Positions 53,771-64,000 of a stretch of 64,000 nt of DNA are shown in pieces. Position 1 is the stretch's first letter. Every line of letters starts with the position of its first letter. Source of the stretch: an uncultured Thermodesulfobacteriota bacterium. Lineage in GTDB: Bacteria > Desulfobacterota > BSN033 > WVXP01. The notes beneath the pieces are model-generated. The model was given only the letters and a program-made list of their open reading frames with translations. It had not been told where the DNA came from and searched no databases. The DNA is taken from NCBI GenBank assembly GCA_964347335.1, contig CAYFYO010000003.1:6180-70179 (forward strand), written 5' to 3'. Both the position numbers and the translations under genes were made by a program.

Positions 53771-54418
53771 TCAACGCGCTTTACGCCCAAAAAACCGGTC
53801 GTAGAGATCGTCAAAAAGAACAGGGATTCTTCTGTGGAATTCTTTGAGGAGGGGAAGCATCAGTTCCCGAATCTGCGGGTGGGCTTGGGAGCTGCAGCGA
53901 AGTCCGAGGACATGCCGCCACTCACGGAGGTTGCATGTCATGACGACCTCCGTTTTCACCGAATTCGGAAGTACGCTTCTGGCTTCCTGCGGCGTAGCCC
54001 CCAGTTCGATAAGCTTCATATAGTGTGTCTCCGAAGCCTGCATCGCTTCTTCCCATTGTCGGTAGGCGGCAACGTCTCGAGACCAGAAAAGGGGTTTGAT
54101 GACCGAGATTTCATTTCCGAATCGATCCTGACTGTAATTGGCGTAACGCGTGCTCTCTTGACTATATGATGCCAGGCGATGGCGCACGAGTTCATGGCTG
54201 ACGCCCCGATCACAGGTGAACTTGACGCTGATCGAGATGTGTTCGATGACGCTGTGGTGACCGGATTTTATGATCCGCCTGATGAAATCCGATGCCGAAC
54301 CGGCGGTGATTCGATGCTCAGACTTATAGCATGTTCGGCCCGCTCGCTCGAGCTTCGCAAGAATCGCATCTGCATCAATGGGATCGAGTATTTCGAAAGA
54401 AGGTTCAACGATTTTCAT
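53771..54418 (-). CDS. thyX: flavin-dependent thymidylate synthase
   Basis: ThyX signature RHRLASYSQESTRY (RHRxxSxxxxSxR). Confidence 0.9.
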   Translation of the reverse strand: MKIVEPSFEILDPIDADAILAKLERAGRTCYKSEHRITAGSASDFIRRIIKSGHHSVIEHISISVKFTCDRGVSHELVRHRLASYSQESTRYANYSQDRFGNEISVIKPLFWSRDVAAYRQWEEAMQASETHYMKLIELGATPQEARSVLPNSVKTEVVMTCNLREWRHVLGLRCSSQAHPQIRELMLPLLKEFHRRIPVLFDDLYDRFFGRKAR

Positions 54419-54633: not shown

Positions 54634-57354
54634 CTACGAGCACCCACTCGTCGCACCACAGTTGAGGCATTTGTAACACGAACCATTCCGAACCATAATG
54701 GAACCACAGTCAGGGCAGGGAGGAGCGTCTTCCTGGGCAGCAAAGGAGAGGCCTTTCCCCCTATCTCCTTCAGACTCATCCGGCAGCTGTTCCGGAGCGC
54801 CCTCAACAAGCACCCCAACCTCGGCCTGTTCCTCCTTGGTGAGGAACTTCGAGGCGAGCCAGCGGAAGATGTAATCACTGAGAGATTTCGCAATGGCGAT
54901 CTGAGGATTCTTCGTGAACCCCGAGGGTTCGAAACGGGCATGTGCGAATTTATTGACGAGAACCTTCAAAGGAACTCCATACTGAAGCGTCAGAGAGACA
55001 GCCGTGGCAAAGCAATCCATAAGACCCGAAACGACGCTTCCCTCCTTGGCAATCACCACGAAAATCTCCCCTGGAGTCCCATCATCATACATCCCAACCG
55101 TTATATAACCCTCGTGATTCCCGATGCTAAACTTATGGGTGAGGGATTTTCTCTCATCAGGAAGACGACGGCGATAGGGGGTTCCCTTAATCTGAAGGTC
55201 CCCCTCCTGTCTCTGACTTAGCGGCTGGGTCCGCTTTGAGCCGTCTCGATAAATAGCCACCGCTTTCAGACCGAGCTGCCATGCCTGGATATAGGCTTCG
55301 GCAATCTCGTCAACTGTCGTTTCATTTGGCACATTGATGGTCTTTGATATGGCACCTGAGATAAACGGTTGAACGGCACCCATCATCTTAATGTGACCCA
55401 TATAATGAATCGATCGACTCCCAAGAATAGGTTTGAAGGCACAGTCAAAAACGGGCGCGTCCGTCTCTTTCAGGTGAGGAGCCCCTTCGATGGTCTCCCT
55501 TTTGTCCAGGAACTGGAGAATCTCCGTTTTCTCCTCCTCGGAATAACCCAACCGATCAAGAGCCCGAGAAACGGTATTGTTGACAATTTTGAGAACGCCA
55601 CCCCCCACAAGCTTCTTATATTTGATGAGTGAAATATCGGGCTCAATCCCTGTCGTGTCACAATCCATCATAAAGGCGATCGTTCCCGTCGGGGCCAAGA
55701 CCGTTACCTGAGCATTCCGGTACCCGTGATCCTCACCTTCCTCGATGGTTTTTTCCCAAACCTCGTGAACGGCGCCCAGCAATTCCAAGGGAACATATGC
55801 CGAGTTGATCTTAGAAACGGCTCGGTGATGTCTTCGCATCACCTCAATCATCGGTTTCCGGTTCCGCTCAAACGCCTCAAAAGCGCCCATGGCTTTGGCA
55901 ATTCTCGCAGACGTCAGATAGGCCTGTCCGGTCATAACTGCCGTAATAGCCGCCGCGTAGTTCCTTCCGGACTCACTGTCATATGGAAGACCACGCGCCA
56001 TGAGCAGCGCCCCGAGGTTGGCGTATCCCAAACCAAGAGGCCGGAATCTGTGACTGTTCTTGGCGATCACCTCCGTCGGGTAGCCGGCATTGTCGACGAT
56101 GATTTCCTGGGCGAGGATCATAATCCCGACTGCATGGCGAAAGGCTTCCACATCAAACTCCCCCTCCTCGCTCAGAAACCTCAGAAGATTCAGGGAAGCC
56201 AGGTTACAGGCCGAGTTATCGAGAAACATATATTCGCTGCACGGATTGGACGCATTGATTCTTCCGCTATTGGTACAGGTGTGCCAGTGATTGATGGTCG
56301 TGTCAAACTGCATACCCGGGTCACCAGAGATATGGGTTCCCTCGGCAATCAGGCGGAGTATCTCCCGAGCCTCGTATTCCCCCATCACCTCCCCAGTTAT
56401 GACGGCCCGGGTCTGCCAGGTTCCATTGTCCAACACGGCCTTCATGAATTCATCAGGAACTCGAACACTATGGTTGGCATTTTGAAAAAAGACGGATCCA
56501 TAAGCCTCACCGTTGAAAGAGCCATCATATCCCGCGTCGATCAGGGCCCATACCTTCTTCTCTTCCTCCTTCTTGCTGTTGATGAACTCCACAATGTCAG
56601 GATGATCCACATTCAGGATGACCATTTTGGCGGCTCGGCGAGTCTTACCGCCTGATTTGATCACACCGGCAAACGCATCGTACCCTTTCATAAAGGATAC
56701 AGGACCCGATGCCGTGCCACCCCCCGAAAGATATTCCTTCGAAGAGCGAAGAGGAGAGAGGTTTGTGCCCGTACCAGAGCCATGCTTGAAAAGCATGCCC
56801 TCAATCTTCGCCAATTCGAGGATCGACGCCATAGAATCCTCGACGGAATTGATAAAACATGCAGAACACTGCGGCTTCTTTTCGATACCGCAGTTGAACC
56901 AAACCGGGCTATTGAACGAAGCCATCTGAAAAAGAATCAGATATGTGAGTTCATCCTGAAAGGTCTTGCCGTCTTCCGGTGAGGGAAAGTATCCCTGACT
57001 CACACCCCATTGGGTTATCGTATCGACGACTCTTCTGATCAGCTGACGAAGGCTCGACTCCCTCTCAGGAGTTCCCTGAATCCCACGAAAATACTTCGAG
57101 GCAACTACATTAACTGCCATTTGGGACCAGAAGGAGGGGAACTCCAGGTCATCCTGCTCAAAAACCTTTTCTCCACTTTCGTTCACAATGGTCGCACGCT
57201 TACGTTCCCATTCCACCATGTCGAAGGGAGAAGTCTCCTTTTTCGTGAAATAACGACGGACGGTCACATCTTTCGGGGCTTCCTCTGAACGTCTCGCTCC
57301 GGATTCAGATTCTTTGCGCTGCAGATCGCGCTTGGGCATCTTCTCCTGACTCAT
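54634..57354 (-). CDS. nrdJ: adenosylcobalamin-dependent (class II) ribonucleotide reductase
   Basis: NrdJ homology, C-terminal zinc ribbon CPDCGS...CYKCLNCG; start MSQEKM behind RBS AGGAGGGGG (ORF-track ATG is 48 nt further upstream). Confidence 0.9.
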   Translation of the reverse strand: MSQEKMPKRDLQRKESESGARRSEEAPKDVTVRRYFTKKETSPFDMVEWERKRATIVNESGEKVFEQDDLEFPSFWSQMAVNVVASKYFRGIQGTPERESSLRQLIRRVVDTITQWGVSQGYFPSPEDGKTFQDELTYLILFQMASFNSPVWFNCGIEKKPQCSACFINSVEDSMASILELAKIEGMLFKHGSGTGTNLSPLRSSKEYLSGGGTASGPVSFMKGYDAFAGVIKSGGKTRRAAKMVILNVDHPDIVEFINSKKEEEKKVWALIDAGYDGSFNGEAYGSVFFQNANHSVRVPDEFMKAVLDNGTWQTRAVITGEVMGEYEAREILRLIAEGTHISGDPGMQFDTTINHWHTCTNSGRINASNPCSEYMFLDNSACNLASLNLLRFLSEEGEFDVEAFRHAVGIMILAQEIIVDNAGYPTEVIAKNSHRFRPLGLGYANLGALLMARGLPYDSESGRNYAAAITAVMTGQAYLTSARIAKAMGAFEAFERNRKPMIEVMRRHHRAVSKINSAYVPLELLGAVHEVWEKTIEEGEDHGYRNAQVTVLAPTGTIAFMMDCDTTGIEPDISLIKYKKLVGGGVLKIVNNTVSRALDRLGYSEEEKTEILQFLDKRETIEGAPHLKETDAPVFDCAFKPILGSRSIHYMGHIKMMGAVQPFISGAISKTINVPNETTVDEIAEAYIQAWQLGLKAVAIYRDGSKRTQPLSQRQEGDLQIKGTPYRRRLPDERKSLTHKFSIGNHEGYITVGMYDDGTPGEIFVVIAKEGSVVSGLMDCFATAVSLTLQYGVPLKVLVNKFAHARFEPSGFTKNPQIAIAKSLSDYIFRWLASKFLTKEEQAEVGVLVEGAPEQLPDESEGDRGKGLSFAAQEDAPPCPDCGSIMVRNGSCYKCLNCGATSGCS

Positions 57355-57444
57355 TCCGTACCCCCTCCTGATATTGAACGACCGCCTCCTTGACGGCCAC
57401 AATAGTATAAATTAGTCCAATCGATCGCCCGTGTCAAGCGAAAA

Positions 57445-57458: not shown

Positions 57459-57732
57459 ACGTTTTCTCGCCAAATCCACAAAATGTTGATGTGTCAAAAC
57501 GATCTGGTTCCCCCCCGAAGACGCTCTCAGACATAGGAACTCCTGCACGACTGCAGCACTTTTGGGAAGCACGCAAGCGAATAGAACAAGGTGAAACTGT
57601 CCCGGAACGAAGCTCTCATAAAAAATCGAAAAGAGGAAATCTCGCAAAGTGACATCGCGAGCGTCTTCTCAGAAGAATGGTTGATTAAGTCAACGCATGT
57701 ATAGTATAATAATATCAGTGGAAGAGAGACCC

Positions 57733-58344
57733 ATGGCCTTAACCGACCGGCAGAGGCAGGTTTTGGACTTCATCAAGCAGTCCATCCTGAAGAGAGGGTT
57801 TCCTCCTTCGATTCGGGAAATTGGGGAGCATTTCGGCATTTATCCTCGCGCTGCTTTCGACCACGTTAAGGCTTTGGAGAGAAAAGGCTTTGTCAAACGG
57901 AGCGCCGCCAAAAGCCGGGGAATCGAGGTCCGGGATTTCATGGAGCGAGATGTCCAACCCGAGGCTCGTCAAGTCCCCCTTCTGGGACGTGTAGCCGCTG
58001 GCGGCCCGATCCTGGCCGTGGAGAACATAGAGTCCGTCATGAGCATTCCAAGGGGTTGGGCTCCAGGTGAGGAGATCTTTTTTCTCAGGGTTAAGGGTGA
58101 CAGCATGGCTCCCTTTATTCTGGAAGGGGATCTCGTTCTCGTCCGCGCTCAGGCTTCGGCGGATAACGGGGAAATCGTCGTTGCCATGCTCGATGACGAG
58201 GCCACCGTGAAAAGGTTCTATAGAGAGAAGCGCCATGTCGTTCTAGAGCCTGAAAACCCGAGGTGGAAAACGCTTCGGATAAAGGAAGGGGCTCCGGGCC
58301 TCCGCGTCATCGGCAAAGTCATCGGTGTCTACAGAAGGCTCTAG
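57733..58344 (+). CDS. lexA: LexA repressor
   Basis: N-terminal wHTH, AG cleavage site (VAAGGP), S24 peptidase Ser (KGDSMAP) and Lys. Confidence 0.9.
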   Translation: MALTDRQRQVLDFIKQSILKRGFPPSIREIGEHFGIYPRAAFDHVKALERKGFVKRSAAKSRGIEVRDFMERDVQPEARQVPLLGRVAAGGPILAVENIESVMSIPRGWAPGEEIFFLRVKGDSMAPFILEGDLVLVRAQASADNGEIVVAMLDDEATVKRFYREKRHVVLEPENPRWKTLRIKEGAPGLRVIGKVIGVYRRL

Positions 58345-58713: not shown

Positions 58714-59799
58714 GTGACAGCAACACAGATCGTAAAATTTCGTGATCGCCTGATTGGGTGGTTTCAAAAGTACCACCGGCGATTGCCCTGGCGCCAAACA
58801 AAGGACCCTTATTCGATTTGGGTTTCTGAGGTCATGCTTCAGCAAACCCAAGTCAAAAAGGTCCTCGAATATTACCAGGAATTCATAAGGAGATTTCCGA
58901 ACATTCAACGCCTGGCCAAGGCCGATTTGCAGGAGGTCCTCAAGGCCTGGGAGAAGATGGGTTACTACGCTCGGGCCAGAAACCTCCACAAAGCGGCTAG
59001 AATGATCGTGCAAGAAATGAATGGCGAGATCCCCGTGGACTATGCCAGATTTCACAAATTGCCGGGTGTCGGGGACTACATTGCGGCCGCGGTCCAAAGC
59101 TTGGCTTTTGACAAACCCTTCCCTGTTTTGGACGGGAACGTCAAAAGGGTAATTTCGCGGCTCTTTCTGATCGAATCGTCATTGAACACCCCCACTGTGG
59201 CAAGATCTCTCAAGGTCAGGACGAGCGAGCTCTTGGACCGGGATAGACCAGGGCTCTTCAACCAAGCGATGATGGAACTGGGGGCCGTGGTCTGCCGCCC
59301 ACGAAAGCCGATCTGCCGAGCATGTCCAGTCCCCTCACTCTGCCAGGCATACCAAAAAGGCAGGCAAAATCACATCCCCATGATCACGAAAGCCAAACCC
59401 GTTCCCACGCATCACATCGCTTGTGGCGTCATTTTCAAAGACAACCAGATATTAATCACTCAGCGGAATTCATCTGGTCTACTGGGTGGGTTGTGGGAGT
59501 TCCCAGGCGGAAAAGTCAGGCCAGGAGAAACGCCTGAACAGGCTTGTGTCAGAGAAGTCAAGGAAGAGGTGAACCTGTCCGTCGAGATTGTTGAGCCACT
59601 CACCCGAGTCAAACACGCGTACACGCATTTTAGAATTGTCCTGGATGTCTTTCGCTGTCGATACCATTCTGGGGAGGTGGCTTTGAGAGGACCTGCAGAC
59701 TACCGCTGGATCAGGATCAATGAGATTGACAAGTACCCATTCCCTGGGGCCACCCATAAATTCATCCCGCTGTTGGTGGGACAAGGCCGACCAGACTGA
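58714..59799 (+). CDS. mutY: A/G-specific adenine DNA glycosylase MutY with C-terminal Nudix-like domain
   Basis: HhH-GPD fold, 4Fe-4S loop CRPRKPICRACPVPSLC, C-terminal LWEFPGGK Nudix-like domain. Confidence 0.85.
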   Translation: MTATQIVKFRDRLIGWFQKYHRRLPWRQTKDPYSIWVSEVMLQQTQVKKVLEYYQEFIRRFPNIQRLAKADLQEVLKAWEKMGYYARARNLHKAARMIVQEMNGEIPVDYARFHKLPGVGDYIAAAVQSLAFDKPFPVLDGNVKRVISRLFLIESSLNTPTVARSLKVRTSELLDRDRPGLFNQAMMELGAVVCRPRKPICRACPVPSLCQAYQKGRQNHIPMITKAKPVPTHHIACGVIFKDNQILITQRNSSGLLGGLWEFPGGKVRPGETPEQACVREVKEEVNLSVEIVEPLTRVKHAYTHFRIVLDVFRCRYHSGEVALRGPADYRWIRINEIDKYPFPGATHKFIPLLVGQGRPD

Positions 59800-60244
59800 A
59801 TCAGCTGCCAAATCAGGGGGGCAACTTTCGACCTTTTATCCACATCGGAAGGTATGGAAAGTCGCCGGTTGGCCATTTTCCTAAGACCGTAAACAATCGC
59901 TGGGGGATCTCTTCTAACCTACAGAAATTAAAATAATTCCTCGTGTTTCCAGAATAAATGACAAGGCAAATCCTCCGGTCCAACAGGCCGCTTTTTCTCG
60001 ACCATTACATTTATCCACAGGATTTCCCCAGGCTTTGGGGCCCACGAAGCCCCATGTCCAAAACGACGGGACGGTCGAGATCGCGATACGCTCCGGCCTC
60101 GAATCGGCTTCCAAGAGTCATATCGTCATCCGAAGTTCGACTCAGAAACCCCGGCTGAAAATCAATCGACGACATGATCGAGCCAATTGAACAAGCCACG
60201 CAAACGTGTTAGGCTAAAGGCAGTGAACTGCAGAGGTAAGCGCC

Positions 60245-60952
60245 GTGAAACCCCGGTTGGTTAAGACATTGGAGGCATTAACCAGACGACCCGATCAGCC
60301 TTTCACATTCGATGAGATCGTCCAAGATATGGGAGCAGGAAAGCATAAGACAACACTCGCGCTTCGTTATCTAAAAGAGAAGGGACTCATCGAGAAGGTC
60401 GTCGATGGGGAAAAATGGAAGCTCAGGGACAAGGCCTTTCCCACTATTGAGGCAATGTTATCTGTCTACCGAAAGGTGAAAAAGAAAAGGCCATCTAAAT
60501 CTGTCCTTCGGTATCTCCTCGCCTCATGCCCCTTCCGGCTGGCGGTCTTCCTCGAAAATGTTAAGGAACAAGGCTTCACGAGGAGAGAAGGACTCCAGTT
60601 CCTTAAAGAGGAGGGGCAGCGAGGGTATCTGAAAGAAGCGGTTATGCTACTGTTGGGCCTACAGATGGCTCACCTCGAATCTTTTCGGTTTTATGCCCGG
60701 GTGAGGTTTGTTAACCCGGAGGAATTTCGTTCGTTCAGGGCCCGATGTGAGATGAAGAGGCTGGATTTTATCGAGGAGGAATTCCTCGTCGGTCAATACC
60801 CTCCCACCATTGTTGAGCAGGCCCGAAGCTATGTGGAAAGGAACGATCACCGTTCCTTGACGCAGAATCCCAGTACGTGGTTTTTTGTCCAAGAGTTTCG
60901 AAAGCGAATCTTGGGCCAACCGGAAAACCCGGTTTACGGGGTCTGCTATTGA
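60245..60952 (+). CDS. hypothetical protein with N-terminal winged-helix-like domain
   Basis: 235-aa ORF, GTG start; N-terminus resembles MarR/TrmB-type wHTH (TFDEIVQDMGAGKHKTTLALRYLKEKGLIEKV); remainder unrecognised. Confidence 0.45.
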   Translation: MKPRLVKTLEALTRRPDQPFTFDEIVQDMGAGKHKTTLALRYLKEKGLIEKVVDGEKWKLRDKAFPTIEAMLSVYRKVKKKRPSKSVLRYLLASCPFRLAVFLENVKEQGFTRREGLQFLKEEGQRGYLKEAVMLLLGLQMAHLESFRFYARVRFVNPEEFRSFRARCEMKRLDFIEEEFLVGQYPPTIVEQARSYVERNDHRSLTQNPSTWFFVQEFRKRILGQPENPVYGVCY

Positions 60953-61041
60953 AAGGGCCGCGTCGACTGCCTTTTGTCCCCGCTTCGCCACCCAAGGATA
61001 ACGCTCCAAGCATTTTGGAAGAAAGCCAAGAGAGGACCCGT

Positions 61042-62610
61042 ATGAAAAGGCAGAAACAGGCAGACAGGCGGCGACTCTCGGAAGAGAAACGCCTGAGAGC
61101 ATACCGGCCAACTCCCATTGTGACACAATTGAAACACACGGTTCTCAATAGGCTCAGTAGAGGGGAGGACGTGATTCCGACGATTGACGGCAGGCGAGAA
61201 ACCAAGGACGACGTTATCCGTGTAATCCTTTCAGGGGCTAATCTCTATCTCGTATCCGAGGAAGGGACGGGCAAGACACGGATGGCCCGGTCAATCGCGG
61301 CGCTTCTCCCTCCGATCCCTGTCATTAAGGGGAGCCCATACAACGACGACCCGAAATGGCCTCGGCATTTGCGCTCGCCATGGTGCCAGGAATTCGAGGA
61401 CCCCGTCAGGGAGCTGGGCATCGAGTGGCTTTCTGGCATCAGGCGTTTCTCCAGGATTCAGGGGAACGAGTACACCAATGAGGCGAAGCTCCTCGGATTG
61501 AAGGATATTCAAGCGATCGCCCAAGGACGGAGTCCCTCCGATCCATCGGTATTTACGGGAACAGGGGTGTTTCGAGCGAATCGAGGGGTGCTTTTGATCG
61601 ACGAGCTTCCGGCGATTCGGACACGAGTCCAAGTGCTTCTTCATCCGATTCTCGAGGAAAAGAAAGCCATTCTTGAAGAATACAACTGGGAGTGGCCCCT
61701 CGATATCTTTTTCGTTGCGACAGGAAACCCGGAGGGATTCTCCCATGTGAACGATGTGCCCCGGCCCCTGATGGATCGGCTGGAAACGGTCTACATGGAT
61801 CTTCCCGAAGAAAAGATCGAAAAGGAGATCATGCTAAAGGAGAGGTTCCAAGAGCCCTCTTGGAGCATGGATGCCTCGCTCGCACAGGCCCTTGAGGAGG
61901 CCACCTTCCAGGATTCTCCCGAATCGACGGAAGCGGAGGTTTTGACCCCCTGGTGGATCTTGGAAGTGATCAACAAGACCGTGAGGCTGACGCGGGAATG
62001 CCCTCGACTGGACAAGAAGGCCACGATCCGGGCAACGACCCGGGCTTTTGATCATACTCGGTCGACTGTCCAGATGAATCTGAGAAGAGTGGCGACCCTC
62101 GCCGACTCTCTCTCTGGCCTCAAACTCGCGTTGCGGAGCCGTGTGGGCCTTCAACCCGATGCCGTGGATTTTGATAACCCTCGGGAGAACTTCAGGACGA
62201 TCGACCGAATTACCGAGGACGTCCTCTCCTTGGCCATGGAAGACCTGGCGGAGGAGTTTTTCAAAAAGGTCCGACCTGACAGGGAGGGAACAGCACTCAA
62301 AGCCGAAGTCGATCGCCTGGTCAAGGCGGGGTATCCCAAAAACGCTCGAGGTCTCGCGGCCTGTCCAGAGGTTTCAAATCTTGTGGGACGGCTGAAAAAA
62401 ATGGCACCCGAAAAAGCAAACCTCACCTTGCTCTCGGACAATGAAAAGGCGCTTTTTACACGTCCCCAGTCCCTCGACAATCAAATCACGGATGAATATG
62501 ACCGCTCCGCCATCGAAATGGTCGTGAACCTGGCTGCTTCAAGAGGAATCCTGAATGGCAACCAGGTGCGCCCCAGTTTCTTTGTGCCGAAGAAATTCGA
62601 TGAATCATGA
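61042..62610 (+). CDS. ChlI/BchI-like (Mg-chelatase subunit I family) AAA+ ATPase with about 190-aa C-terminal extension
   Basis: Walker A SEEGTGKT, LLPxIxVxxGxPxN insertion, Walker B LLIDELP, sensor/arginine block VATGNPEG...PLMDRL as in BchI/ChlI; RBS AGAGAGGA before ATG 61042. Confidence 0.6.
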   Translation: MKRQKQADRRRLSEEKRLRAYRPTPIVTQLKHTVLNRLSRGEDVIPTIDGRRETKDDVIRVILSGANLYLVSEEGTGKTRMARSIAALLPPIPVIKGSPYNDDPKWPRHLRSPWCQEFEDPVRELGIEWLSGIRRFSRIQGNEYTNEAKLLGLKDIQAIAQGRSPSDPSVFTGTGVFRANRGVLLIDELPAIRTRVQVLLHPILEEKKAILEEYNWEWPLDIFFVATGNPEGFSHVNDVPRPLMDRLETVYMDLPEEKIEKEIMLKERFQEPSWSMDASLAQALEEATFQDSPESTEAEVLTPWWILEVINKTVRLTRECPRLDKKATIRATTRAFDHTRSTVQMNLRRVATLADSLSGLKLALRSRVGLQPDAVDFDNPRENFRTIDRITEDVLSLAMEDLAEEFFKKVRPDREGTALKAEVDRLVKAGYPKNARGLAACPEVSNLVGRLKKMAPEKANLTLLSDNEKALFTRPQSLDNQITDEYDRSAIEMVVNLAASRGILNGNQVRPSFFVPKKFDES

Positions 62611-62783
62611 GAAACGACCAAATCCGCCTCCACTGTTCCGAGAGTTCCGGGCCCCCACCTGTCAGCGCGGGTCCACAAGGTCTAGAAATCCCGCGGAAGT
62701 AAACGGTTTGTGCGACTTCGTAAAACCCTCGCGTCTTTAAGCGAGATTGCGGAAGGGGTAGGGAATCCATCCGAGAATACCTG

Positions 62784-62812
62784 TTGACAAATCAATTTCT
62801 GTTCGTTATATA
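62784..62812 (+). promoter_or_regulatory. sigma70-like promoter driving the cobalamin riboswitch leader
   Basis: TTGACA-17 nt-TATATA(CT). Confidence 0.5.
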
Positions 62813-62821
62813 CTGAGTCAC

Positions 62822-63075
62822 GAAATGTTTGGGTGTAGGGAAGACGGTGAGAAGCCGTCGCGGACCCGCCGCTGTGAGTGGGGACGAAAGCCACAGAGTG
62901 GGCCACTATTTCGCTCGAGCGGAATGGGAAGGCGTGGTGAGTAGGAGGATCCACGAGCCAGAAAACCTGCCCAAGACGTTGCTCCAAAAACATTCCTCGA
63001 GGGGTGGGAATATGGAGTCGGCGAGGGAAGTCGGTCTGATCGCAATCCGGGGTCAGGCTTTTTTTGTCTTCGAGA
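62822..63075 (+). ncRNA. cobalamin (B12) riboswitch, cis-regulatory leader
   Basis: GGGAAGACGGTGAGAAGCCGTCGCGGACCCGCCGCTGTGAGTGGGGACGAAAGCCACAG core and B12 box GAGCCAGAAAACCTGCCC; T-run GGCTTTTTTTG about 63058-63068. Confidence 0.75.
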
Positions 63076-63231
63076 GCGTTCAAGCGCCCTCCATTTGACC
63101 AATCTCCTTTTCCCAATATCCCTCTCTTTCTCTATTGCACTTGTCTGGGACACGAATACCAGGTCAGCGCAAAGACCTTCTATTCATATGGAACTTCCTG
63201 TCCCTAAACTGAGAAGTCAAAGGAGAAGACC

Positions 63232-64000
63232 ATGGCAAGATGGCTAAAGTTCAAGTTTTTCGCGACCCCTCTGACCCAGGCTATCGGGTCAGACGGCTCG
63301 AACACCGAGCTCGCAATACCCGAAGTGCGGGGGAGCGATGCCCGGAATCGGTTCATTCACCGCTGGAACGCTTGGGCCATGCTATCCCTCGCACTTGTCT
63401 CAGGCCCGGCTCTGGCTCAGGAGAAAGAGGAGGTACCTATCCTGGGAGAGGTCGTGGTCACGGCAACACGAAAAGAGGAGGAGATCCGTAAGATTCCGGC
63501 AAACGTGACGGTCATCACCGAACAAGACATTGAGAACTCCAACGCCAAGACCGTCGCCGATCTGCTGCGATCTGAAGAGGGCATCGTTGTGAGAGACCTT
63601 ATTGGGAATGGAAAGAGTGCACAAGTCGACCTTCGCGGTTTCGGAGAAACGGCACCCTCCAACACCCTGGTGCTCGTTGACGGGCGGCGGGTCAACGAAA
63701 TCGATCTCAGCGGCGTCGATTGGACACAGATCCCCCTGGACCAGATCGAACGAGTCGAAATTGTCCGGGGCAGCGGGAGCGTTCTGTTCGGGGATAACGC
63801 CGTGGGTGGCGTGATCAATATCATCACGAAAACCCCCGCCGAGAAAGTGACCATGAGGGGTGAAATTCTTGCCGGGAGCTACGGACGAATTAGAGAAGAA
63901 GCATCGATCAGCGGAGGCTATGAGAACGTGGCCGCTTCCCTCTCTGGCAGCTATGACTCAACGAATGGGTACCGGGAAAACGGTGAGTTTCGGACGAGAG
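63232..64000 (+). CDS. TonB-dependent outer-membrane receptor (BtuB-like), 3'-truncated by window edge
   Basis: RBS AAGGAGAAG before ATG 63232 (not in ORF track because the frame is open at the window end); signal peptide AMLSLALVSGPALA/QE; plug domain with TonB box VVVTATR and IERVEIVRGSGSVLFG. Confidence 0.8.
   Translation, partial: MARWLKFKFFATPLTQAIGSDGSNTELAIPEVRGSDARNRFIHRWNAWAMLSLALVSGPALAQEKEEVPILGEVVVTATRKEEEIRKIPANVTVITEQDIENSNAKTVADLLRSEEGIVVRDLIGNGKSAQVDLRGFGETAPSNTLVLVDGRRVNEIDLSGVDWTQIPLDQIERVEIVRGSGSVLFGDNAVGGVINIITKTPAEKVTMRGEILAGSYGRIREEASISGGYENVAASLSGSYDSTNGYRENGEFRTR

Follow-up and report, generated by a model that had tools for sequence, protein, structure and literature searches.

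The 64,000-nucleotide (64 kb) stretch of DNA analyzed here, referred to as the window, comes from an uncultured Thermodesulfobacteriota bacterium and carries two adjacent genes, which encode a winged-helix protein (ORF1) and a ChlI/BchI-like AAA+ ATPase. We conclude that this pair is probably a lineage-specific reduced version of a three-gene module of anaerobes, which consists of a winged-helix protein, a ChlI/BchI-type AAA+ ATPase, and a VWA protein with a metal ion-dependent adhesion site (MIDAS), and which is distantly homologous to the Rv0958/Rv0959 pair of Actinobacteria. The most likely reading is that the module is an ATP-driven remodeler with a dedicated winged-helix regulator. The family is widespread, and no functional study of it was found in the literature searched. 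An earlier interpretation of the same DNA (the sequence-only reading) had proposed a hypothetical winged-helix protein followed by a ChlI/BchI-like ATPase, and both ORFs were indeed found on the plus strand. The features of the pair are the following:

60187..60215, + strand: putative promoter TTGAAC-17 nt-TAGGCT, 5′ of ORF1 (read from the sequence)
60245..60952, + strand: ORF1, family-specific winged-helix protein, 235 aa, GTG start (ORF call, homologs)
61042..62610, + strand: ChlI/BchI-like (Rv0958-like) AAA+ ATPase, 522 aa (Pfam, profile alignments)
61255..61278, + strand: Walker A of the ATPase, S72-EEGTGKT79 (identical in 15 aligned sequences, matched with the P-loop of ChlI)
61330..61389, + strand: degraded cysteine motif GSPYNDDPKWPRHLRSPWCQ, ATPase residues 97–116 (family alignment)
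61588..61611, + strand: Walker B of the ATPase, V183-LLIDELP190 (D187 and E188 invariant)
62143..62610, + strand: C-terminal extension of the ATPase, residues 368–522, family-specific helical bundle

A conserved winged-helix, AAA+ and VWA module

The homolog survey included one genome per species and found 124 relatives, from which 80 loci were kept, all of them in metagenome-assembled genomes (MAGs). For the mapping of neighborhoods, ORFs were called and clustered by all-against-all BLASTP; the clustered set comprises 79 loci, 77 of which lie outside the clade of the window. Loci are cited below by their L numbers. The search with the ATPase returned more than 432 matches, which are approximately 50–55% identical over their full length. 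The bacterial sequences originated from Dehalococcoidia/Chloroflexota, Syntrophorhabdales, Desulfobacterales, Syntrophaceae, and Nitrospinota, while the archaeal ones came from Alkanophaga, Bathyarchaeota, Halobacteriota, Methanobacteriota, and Aenigmatarchaeota. This family has no dedicated Pfam or NCBIfam model and is strongly conserved, its bacterial and archaeal members being approximately 50% identical.

The sequence-only reading had noted that the ATPase lacks a VWA partner. This is true for the window, but the family normally has one: a VWA protein of approximately 420 aa is encoded on the same strand directly 3′ of the ATPase in 66 of the 79 loci, and in 56 of the 66 loci that are evaluable, that is, contain at least 1.5 kb of sequence downstream of the ATPase. 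The median stop-to-start distance is −4 nt, the two codons usually overlapping. The partner is built of a CxxC/coiled-coil region, a winged helix and a VWA domain, with an intact MIDAS (DxSGS...TD...TD) and a conserved N-terminal CxxC. It matches the VWA_2 and VWA models and weakly CobT_C, gives no AAA domain match, and its database copies carry PF27098 (Rv0959_3rd). The supposition that the two genes form an undescribed, conserved association was borne out, since homologs of ORF1 lie beside ATPase homologs in 44 of the 79 loci, in bacteria as well as archaea, always at a distance of 2.5 kb or less (28 of the 49 fully evaluable loci). Thirty of the 43 copies of the ORF1 homolog are located upstream of the ATPase and are divergent from it. 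In the inspected Syntrophorhabdales loci the start codons of the winged-helix and ATPase genes are approximately 60–90 bp apart, and a sigma-70-like promoter (TTGAC-17-TATATT) abuts the start codon of the winged-helix gene. The neighborhood comparison suggested earlier thus found the pair conserved across genomes and added the VWA gene as the usual third member; the linkage counts of the VWA gene and the ORF1 homologs therefore define the canonical unit as winged helix, AAA+ and VWA, with a linkage conserved in bacteria and archaea.

The reduced clade of the window

The clade of the window consists of six loci (the window, L002/L011, L012, L091, L092, and L093), whose ATPases are 70–83% identical to the window protein. 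The genes for MutY, ORF1, and the ATPase follow each other in the same orientation in all six, while a VWA gene is adjacent to the ATPase in none. An HMM (hidden Markov model) of the partner gave a best E value of 0.22 against the six-frame translation of the window, where tblastn found nothing either, and it had no match in 101 kb of sequence from the clade loci. That the model works was shown by a positive control, in which it detected even distant Rv0959-type proteins at 1e-25 to 4e-58. The loss of the VWA gene strictly means that it is neither adjacent nor present within approximately 165 kb of clade sequence (the 64 kb window and the 101 kb). Since the window clade is nested and not basal in a midpoint-rooted neighbor-joining tree, which is crude and has no outgroup, the parsimonious reading is that the gene was lost and that its lack is a derived state of this small clade.

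A cysteine motif of the ATPase is also affected. The family consensus is GCPY(H/N)DDPKW...LCPRC (C-x13-C-x2-C), and its three cysteines are invariant in the 75 aligned family ATPases from outside the window clade. The motif was lost in the window clade alone, which has S...S..C or S...S..S at this site. That the motif and the CxxC-bearing partner vanished together suggests, as a speculation, that both may contribute to one metal-dependent interface between the subunits.

It could be argued from the loss of the VWA gene and the cysteine motif that both remaining genes are non-functional leftovers, decaying since their partner disappeared. This is extremely unlikely. The ratio of nonsynonymous to synonymous substitution rates (dN/dS) is 0.09 for the ATPase (compared with L011) and 0.13–0.14 for ORF1 (compared with L011 and L012), values that are approximate as dS is saturated (>1.7) and that indicate purifying selection on both genes. 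The frames are intact in the six clade loci except for a lone break in L012, which coincides with a masked base, and all catalytic motifs have been kept.

Start site, catalytic elements, and classification of the ATPase

The longest form of the ATPase ORF starts at a GTG at 60877, encodes 577 aa and would overlap ORF1. This start was rejected in favor of the ATG at 61042, because the resulting 522-aa product is identical to a database protein (P0001), a Shine-Dalgarno-like GAGAGGA precedes this ATG, and the alignments of homologs begin only at approximately residue 15.

The profile-HMM search that had been recommended for the pair matched the ATPase with AAA_5 (2.5e-9) and Mg_chelatase (1.9e-7), while the Pfam models of MoxR, sigma-54 activators, and MCM all remained under their thresholds (MoxR AAA_3, PF07726, 15.1 bits vs. 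a gathering threshold of 27; Sigma54_activat, PF00158, 17 bits vs. 20.2). The NCBIfam matches to ChlI, ChlD, and cobaltochelatase models were weak as well, more than tenfold under the cut-offs (TIGR02442 included); the ChlI/BchI equivalog model TIGR02030 gave 32.2 bits vs. a cut-off of 466.95. Nevertheless, the top three matches among solved structures were ChlI/BchI proteins, so the ATPase did not prove a better fit to MoxR or ComM. The family profile aligned with Synechocystis ChlI (8osf) at an E value of 5e-11, query residues 47–366 corresponding to residues 26–336 of the chain. This alignment is end to end over the entire AAA+ module and takes in the LLPxIPV...P(F/Y)NxDP insertion, where LLPPIPVIKGSPYNDDP of the ATPase corresponds to LLPEIPVVANDPFNSDP of ChlI. 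The ChlI/BchI hallmarks on which the original assignment was based, namely SEEGTGKT as Walker A, LLIDELP as Walker B, and ATGNP...PRPLMDRL as sensor 1 with the arginine fingers, were all aligned with their ChlI counterparts. K78/T79, D187/E188, N229 (sensor 1), R241, R246, and R330 do not vary among the 15 aligned sequences, which come from both bacteria and archaea. The ATPase retains every catalytic AAA+ element, and the ChlI-type apparatus is intact.

The C-terminal domain described in the sequence-only reading as 190 aa is present as an extension, but it covers only approximately 155 aa past the AAA+ lid. When it was searched for in other protein contexts, a representative library returned only fragments of its own family. 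This domain is an extra compared with ChlI, and the module differs from ChlI–ChlD in further respects: no ChlH/CobN gene is associated with it, the winged-helix protein is a third component, and the VWA partner, although it shares the MIDAS-VWA domain with the C-terminus of ChlD and with CobT, has no AAA-like N-domain as ChlD/BchD does.

CobS–CobT is analogous to the motor of class I chelatases, ChlI–ChlD. The MoxR class of AAA+/VWA pairs includes RavA–ViaA, CbbQ–CbbO, NorQ–NorD, and CoxD–CoxE, and these known pairs mature or remodel a metalloenzyme client. By analogy, the family would resemble them in that its AAA+ ring is paired, through translational coupling, with a MIDAS-VWA adaptor, whereas it differs from them in that ChlI ranks higher than MoxR for its ATPase and no conserved client gene lies nearby.

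ORF1, a winged-helix protein specific to the family

The N-terminus of ORF1, for which a winged-helix-like structure had been suggested, does have a winged-helix DNA-binding fold (residues 1–62). This is followed by a second helix-helix-helix-strand unit (approximately residues 85–137) and a conserved C-terminal EExFLxGxYPP. Gene callers had begun the protein at M29, giving 207 aa, but the GTG start is supported by distant homologs, which align from residue 3. A word-indexed search returned only seven close homologs, while BLASTP revealed that the unannotated genes adjoining distant ATPase homologs are homologs of ORF1 (the best distant match was L010:11150-11824 with an E value of 9e-25; others were L010:12966-13643 and L008:7166-7915). 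A profile search collected 33 proteins, all labeled "hypothetical" and none with a Pfam domain. A GluRS-like match of the C-terminus (TIGR00464, E value 3e-5) was seen in one of 20 family members and was treated as spurious.

Similarity to the MarR/ArsR/Lrs14 type of regulators was found at two levels. Several members of the ORF1 family match Lrs14 or Sta1 weakly, as ORF1 itself weakly matches MarR_2, Lrs14, and Sta1, and in most lineages the ORF1 homolog is divergent from the operon, which is usual for regulators. On the other hand, all Pfam and NCBIfam scores of ORF1 are under the cut-offs (MarR_2, 16.5 bits vs. 27), so that it belongs to neither MarR family (PF12802 or PF01047) and is covered by no other Pfam family, and its approximately 150 further residues match no known effector domain. 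The promoter-like TTGAAC-17-TAGGCT block upstream of ORF1 is kept in L011 and L012, while a stricter scan for consensus promoters did not flag it. Fold and gene arrangement lead us to infer that ORF1 is the dedicated transcriptional regulator of the module or, alternatively, a DNA-tethering adaptor.

Relationship to Rv0958/Rv0959

When annotated replicons were searched by tblastn, the best matches of the ATPase showed 28–32% identity, with E values down to 1e-26 (Thermomicrobium roseum). In T. roseum and Tsukamurella, these genes are labeled "sigma 54-interacting transcriptional regulator," and the gene after each of them bears the label "VWA domain-containing protein." The Tsukamurella copy lies a few genes downstream of purN-purH, which we take to be the gene order of M. 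tuberculosis Rv0956–Rv0959. The Tsukamurella ortholog of Rv0958 is homologous to the ATPase over residues 26–329 (hhalign probability 99.1%, E value 4e-19, 31% identity), including a shared AQGRSxxDP...RAxRG...ELP block, and the VWA partner of the family is homologous to the C-terminal approximately 300 aa (winged helix and VWA) of the Rv0959 type with a probability of 98.4%. The order of the genes, ATPase then VWA, is the same. Both groups, that is, Rv0958/Rv0959 of Mycobacteriales and Thermomicrobia and the anaerobe family, are functionally uncharacterized.

The differences are also considerable. Identity is about 30%, and the alignment stops at approximately residue 330 of 522, so that the C-terminal extension of the anaerobe proteins falls outside it. 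The anaerobe VWA partner is shorter (approximately 420 vs. 660–700 aa), the C-x13-C-x2-C motif is carried by the anaerobe family, and the dedicated winged-helix protein occurs only there; it was looked for in the Rv0958 loci and as a fusion in Rv0959, and none was found. The window copy further differs by lacking the downstream partner (Rv0959_3rd and VWA), as do all six clade loci. Rv0958-type ATPases are annotated either as "magnesium chelatase" or as "sigma 54-interacting transcriptional regulator," and the latter name was assigned by PGAP (L094 5013-6413 and L095 4845-6257). This name is probably misleading, because Sigma54_activat remained under its threshold on the window homolog.

Distribution and gene neighborhoods of the family

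To find a client, 1,096 neighboring ORFs were clustered, but each recurring family was present in at most 12 of the 79 loci. The recurring neighbors were PlsY, CysE, cysteine desulfurase, aldehyde ferredoxin oxidoreductase (AFOR), molybdenum-containing oxidoreductases, DnaJ, NadA, FtsK, and archaeal ribosome-related genes.

The patchy distribution over unrelated anaerobes and archaea with identities still around 50%, the varying genomic contexts, and an archaeal MAG with two or three paralogs (L072, L076, and L081) would fit a conflict or defense system of AAA+/VWA type spread by horizontal transfer. We consider this very unlikely, since PADLOC gave no significant match (best E values 0.002–0.05, all on generic winged-helix or AAA regions), no relatives were detected in 2.9 million viral contigs, the neighbors are housekeeping genes without nucleases, toxins, or mobile-element genes among them, and the conservation is unusually strong for a defense gene. 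A phage or plasmid origin was also rejected: viral contigs held no relatives, and the plasmid matches were Rv0958-type or bchI genes on chromids.

Some archaeal MAGs hold two or three ATPase paralogs. The three loci named above belong to one Halobacteriota MAG (JAXHTJ01), while L077 and L084 are located in one Methanobacteriota MAG. In L077, the gene 3′ of the ATPase encodes instead an 896-aa protein with VWA and PKD repeats. In L051 and L052 (Candidatus Alkanophaga), the ATPase is found among the genes of ribosomal protein S19e, a PDCD5-like dsDNA-binding protein, and a Nog1-type GTPase, a different, translation-related context with no adjacent VWA or winged-helix gene. Tandem gene pairs for proteins of approximately 484 and 94 aa flank the ATPase–VWA genes in the Dehalococcoidales loci L041, L042, L062, L064, L068, L075, and L089 (e.g., L062:2136-3590 and L089:9349-9633), and in these MAGs a cysteine desulfurase-like gene is often present 3′ of the VWA gene. 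The pairs were considered as reductive dehalogenase genes (RdhAB) and rejected, as they show no Pfam match, twin-arginine (TAT) signal, Fe-S motifs, or membrane anchor.

The DnaA-box element and the DNA-metabolism genes

Upstream of the pair lie genes of DNA metabolism and an intergenic element with DnaA boxes:

53771..54418, − strand: ThyX
54634..57402, − strand: class II (B12-dependent) ribonucleotide reductase (RNR)
57697..58344, + strand: LexA
58714..59799, + strand: MutY
59836..60019, + strand: upstream intergenic element with two DnaA-box 9-mers (sequence, clade comparison)

The two 9-mers are perfect copies of the DnaA-box consensus TTATCCACA on the same strand (59836–59844 and 60011–60019). 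They are spaced by 175 bp, and the sequence between them includes a conserved AT-rich block at approximately 59925–59945. Three exact copies of TTATCCACA occur in the 64 kb window. Both boxes and their 175–176 bp spacing are kept in five clade genomes (the window, L002/L011, L012, L091, and L093), while the surrounding sequence between mutY and ORF1 (59800–60244) is poorly conserved. L092 lacks the boxes, and so do the regions upstream of the ATPase in the 77 clustered loci outside the clade. The element may act as an operator or as a promoter under DnaA control, or it may belong to an origin. As regards a replication origin at the boxes, there are two boxes only, GC skew tracks gene orientation, and a relaxed consensus adds nothing locally.

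These observations bear on the possibility that the pair is a DNA-associated two-component motor, in which the tandem winged-helix protein of the clade loads or targets the ATPase on DNA for a role in replication or repair. The MutY-ORF1-ATPase block, which the six clade loci share and which has LexA in its vicinity, the class II RNR and ThyX genes that are also near where the clade sequence reaches that far, and the spacing of the DnaA boxes are all compatible with it, as are the relatedness of the ChlI clade to the helicases MCM and ComM (a match to ComM was marginal) and the co-purification of the M. smegmatis Rv0958 ortholog with RNA polymerase (PMC7092591). However, close relatives may have this synteny in common simply by descent, the surroundings of the other 77 loci contain no DNA-repair genes, L092 is without the boxes, and no helicase-specific features were seen in the ATPase. 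Moreover, the tagged M. smegmatis ortholog pulled down no DNA and had no detectable DNA association (PMC7092591). We therefore regard a DNA-associated motor as unlikely. A further form of it, that the clade turned the AAA+/VWA/winged-helix machine into a VWA-independent two-component system, whose winged-helix protein directly targets a ChlI/MCM-like ring to DNA under DnaA control in a LexA-MutY-linked DNA-maintenance block, is quite unlikely; if it were true, a chelatase-like ancestor would have given rise to a DNA-associated AAA+ motor of a new kind.

The cobalamin riboswitch and the TonB-dependent receptor

As stated in the sequence-only reading, the pair is located immediately upstream of a cobalamin riboswitch and a TonB-dependent receptor gene:

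62784..62812, + strand: sigma-70-like promoter TTGACA-17 nt-TATATA of the riboswitch/receptor unit, outside the ATPase pair (sequence)
62814..62988, + strand: cobalamin riboswitch aptamer, 5′ leader of the TonB receptor, separate unit (Rfam, 97.2 bits)
approximately 63033–63062: terminator-like hairpin and T-run, 3′ of the aptamer (sequence)
63233 onward: TonB-dependent receptor ORF, ATG at 63233, plug domain, extending past the window end (sequence)

The riboswitch was the only RNA found by the Rfam scan of the window. Its promoter lies between the stop codon of the ATPase and the aptamer, and an AAGGAG ribosome-binding site precedes the ATG of the receptor, whose ortholog in relatives consists of Plug and TonB_dep_Rec_b-barrel. 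An ORF of 143–144 aa antisense to the riboswitch (62682–63116, − strand; L002 11484-11915) is annotated as a gene in relatives. It is probably a spurious call, because it has no Pfam match and lies opposite a structured RNA.

This neighborhood had prompted the suggestion of a link to corrinoid or metal handling, according to which the ATPase would drive a class I chelatase-like machine or act as a chaperone that handles corrinoids, with a functional tie to the B12-regulated uptake gene next to it. ChlI/BchI proteins are indeed its nearest solved relatives, the partner VWA domain weakly matches CobT_C, and the riboswitch and/or the receptor adjoin the ATPase not only here but also in L002 (both) and L093 (receptor). 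A class II RNR gene is nearby, and a few distant loci are found among genes for methylmalonyl-CoA mutase, that is, B12-dependent mutases, and B12-binding proteins or near those of URO-D or MttB-family proteins, although this is a minority pattern. In M. marinum, a transposon insertion upstream of the Rv0958 ortholog, in its promoter, was recovered in a B12-resistance screen (PMC11237697). Against these stand the position of the riboswitch, which is 3′ of the ATPase with its own promoter, and the poor conservation of the receptor, which is missing in two of the five clade loci reaching past the ATPase (L091, with PilZ and other genes in its place, and L092, with a B3_4 protein, an HTH-cupin, and glutamate synthase) and in the 77 clustered loci outside the clade. 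Neither was a riboswitch found in the six distant loci scanned. The window contains no cobN, chlH, or cobalamin-biosynthesis gene, its largest ORF being the 922-aa RNR and none reaching 1,000 aa, and no cluster of ChlH/BchH/CobN size (>1,100 aa) occurs among the neighbors of the 79 loci. The neighbors are mostly unrelated housekeeping genes, and the chelatase models TIGR02030 and TIGR02442 scored far under their cut-offs, as described above. We conclude that a chelatase or corrinoid function is quite unlikely and that the suggested link is not supported: the riboswitch and the receptor form, as read from the sequence, an independent downstream transcription unit, and the connection to B12 is positional. 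The analysis thus removes a tempting but unsupported B12 annotation.

The remainder of the window is ordinary chromosome, encoding Obg, ProB, ProA, NadD, two RNase E/G paralogs, RpoD, GroEL, and DnaJ besides the genes of DNA metabolism listed above. The B12-dependent class II RNR fits the B12-regulated uptake gene nearby; its gene is intact in L002 and apparently fragmented in L003.

Proposed function and significance

The reading we prefer is an ATP-driven remodeler. The ATPase would assemble into a ChlI-like ring, which would spend ATP on remodeling its client, a protein or a metallo-cofactor, with the MIDAS-VWA adaptor as intermediary, by analogy with ChlI–ChlD, CobS–CobT, and the MoxR-type pairs. 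ORF1 would serve as the local regulator of the module. In the window clade, the motor would either do without a VWA adaptor or use one whose gene lies elsewhere in the genome. Several points weigh against this proposal. The neighboring genes are heterogeneous, mostly of housekeeping type, and point to no client. An ORF1 homolog is present in 57% of the evaluable loci, and its regulatory role would follow from fold and gene arrangement only. The saturated dS, the crude tree, and the strict sense of the loss of the VWA gene, all given above, should be considered too, and no functional study or data for any family member or for Rv0958/Rv0959 were found in the literature searched.

Cofactor insertion and protein remodeling driven by ATP are tasks for which AAA+/VWA pairs recur as a solution, and their examples include the Mg- and Co-chelatases, the Rubisco activases, NorQ/NorD, and the CoxD/CoxE maturation factors. 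The hosts of the family described here are uncultured anaerobes important in the turnover of hydrocarbons, aromatics, and organohalides, and the family is now connected to the mycobacterial Rv0958/Rv0959 pair, which is equally uncharacterized but genetically tractable. The lineage of the window is a natural experiment, in which the VWA gene and the cysteine motif vanish together while the ATPase and the winged-helix protein stay under selection, and this joint loss may help to reveal the dependences among the components of the machine.

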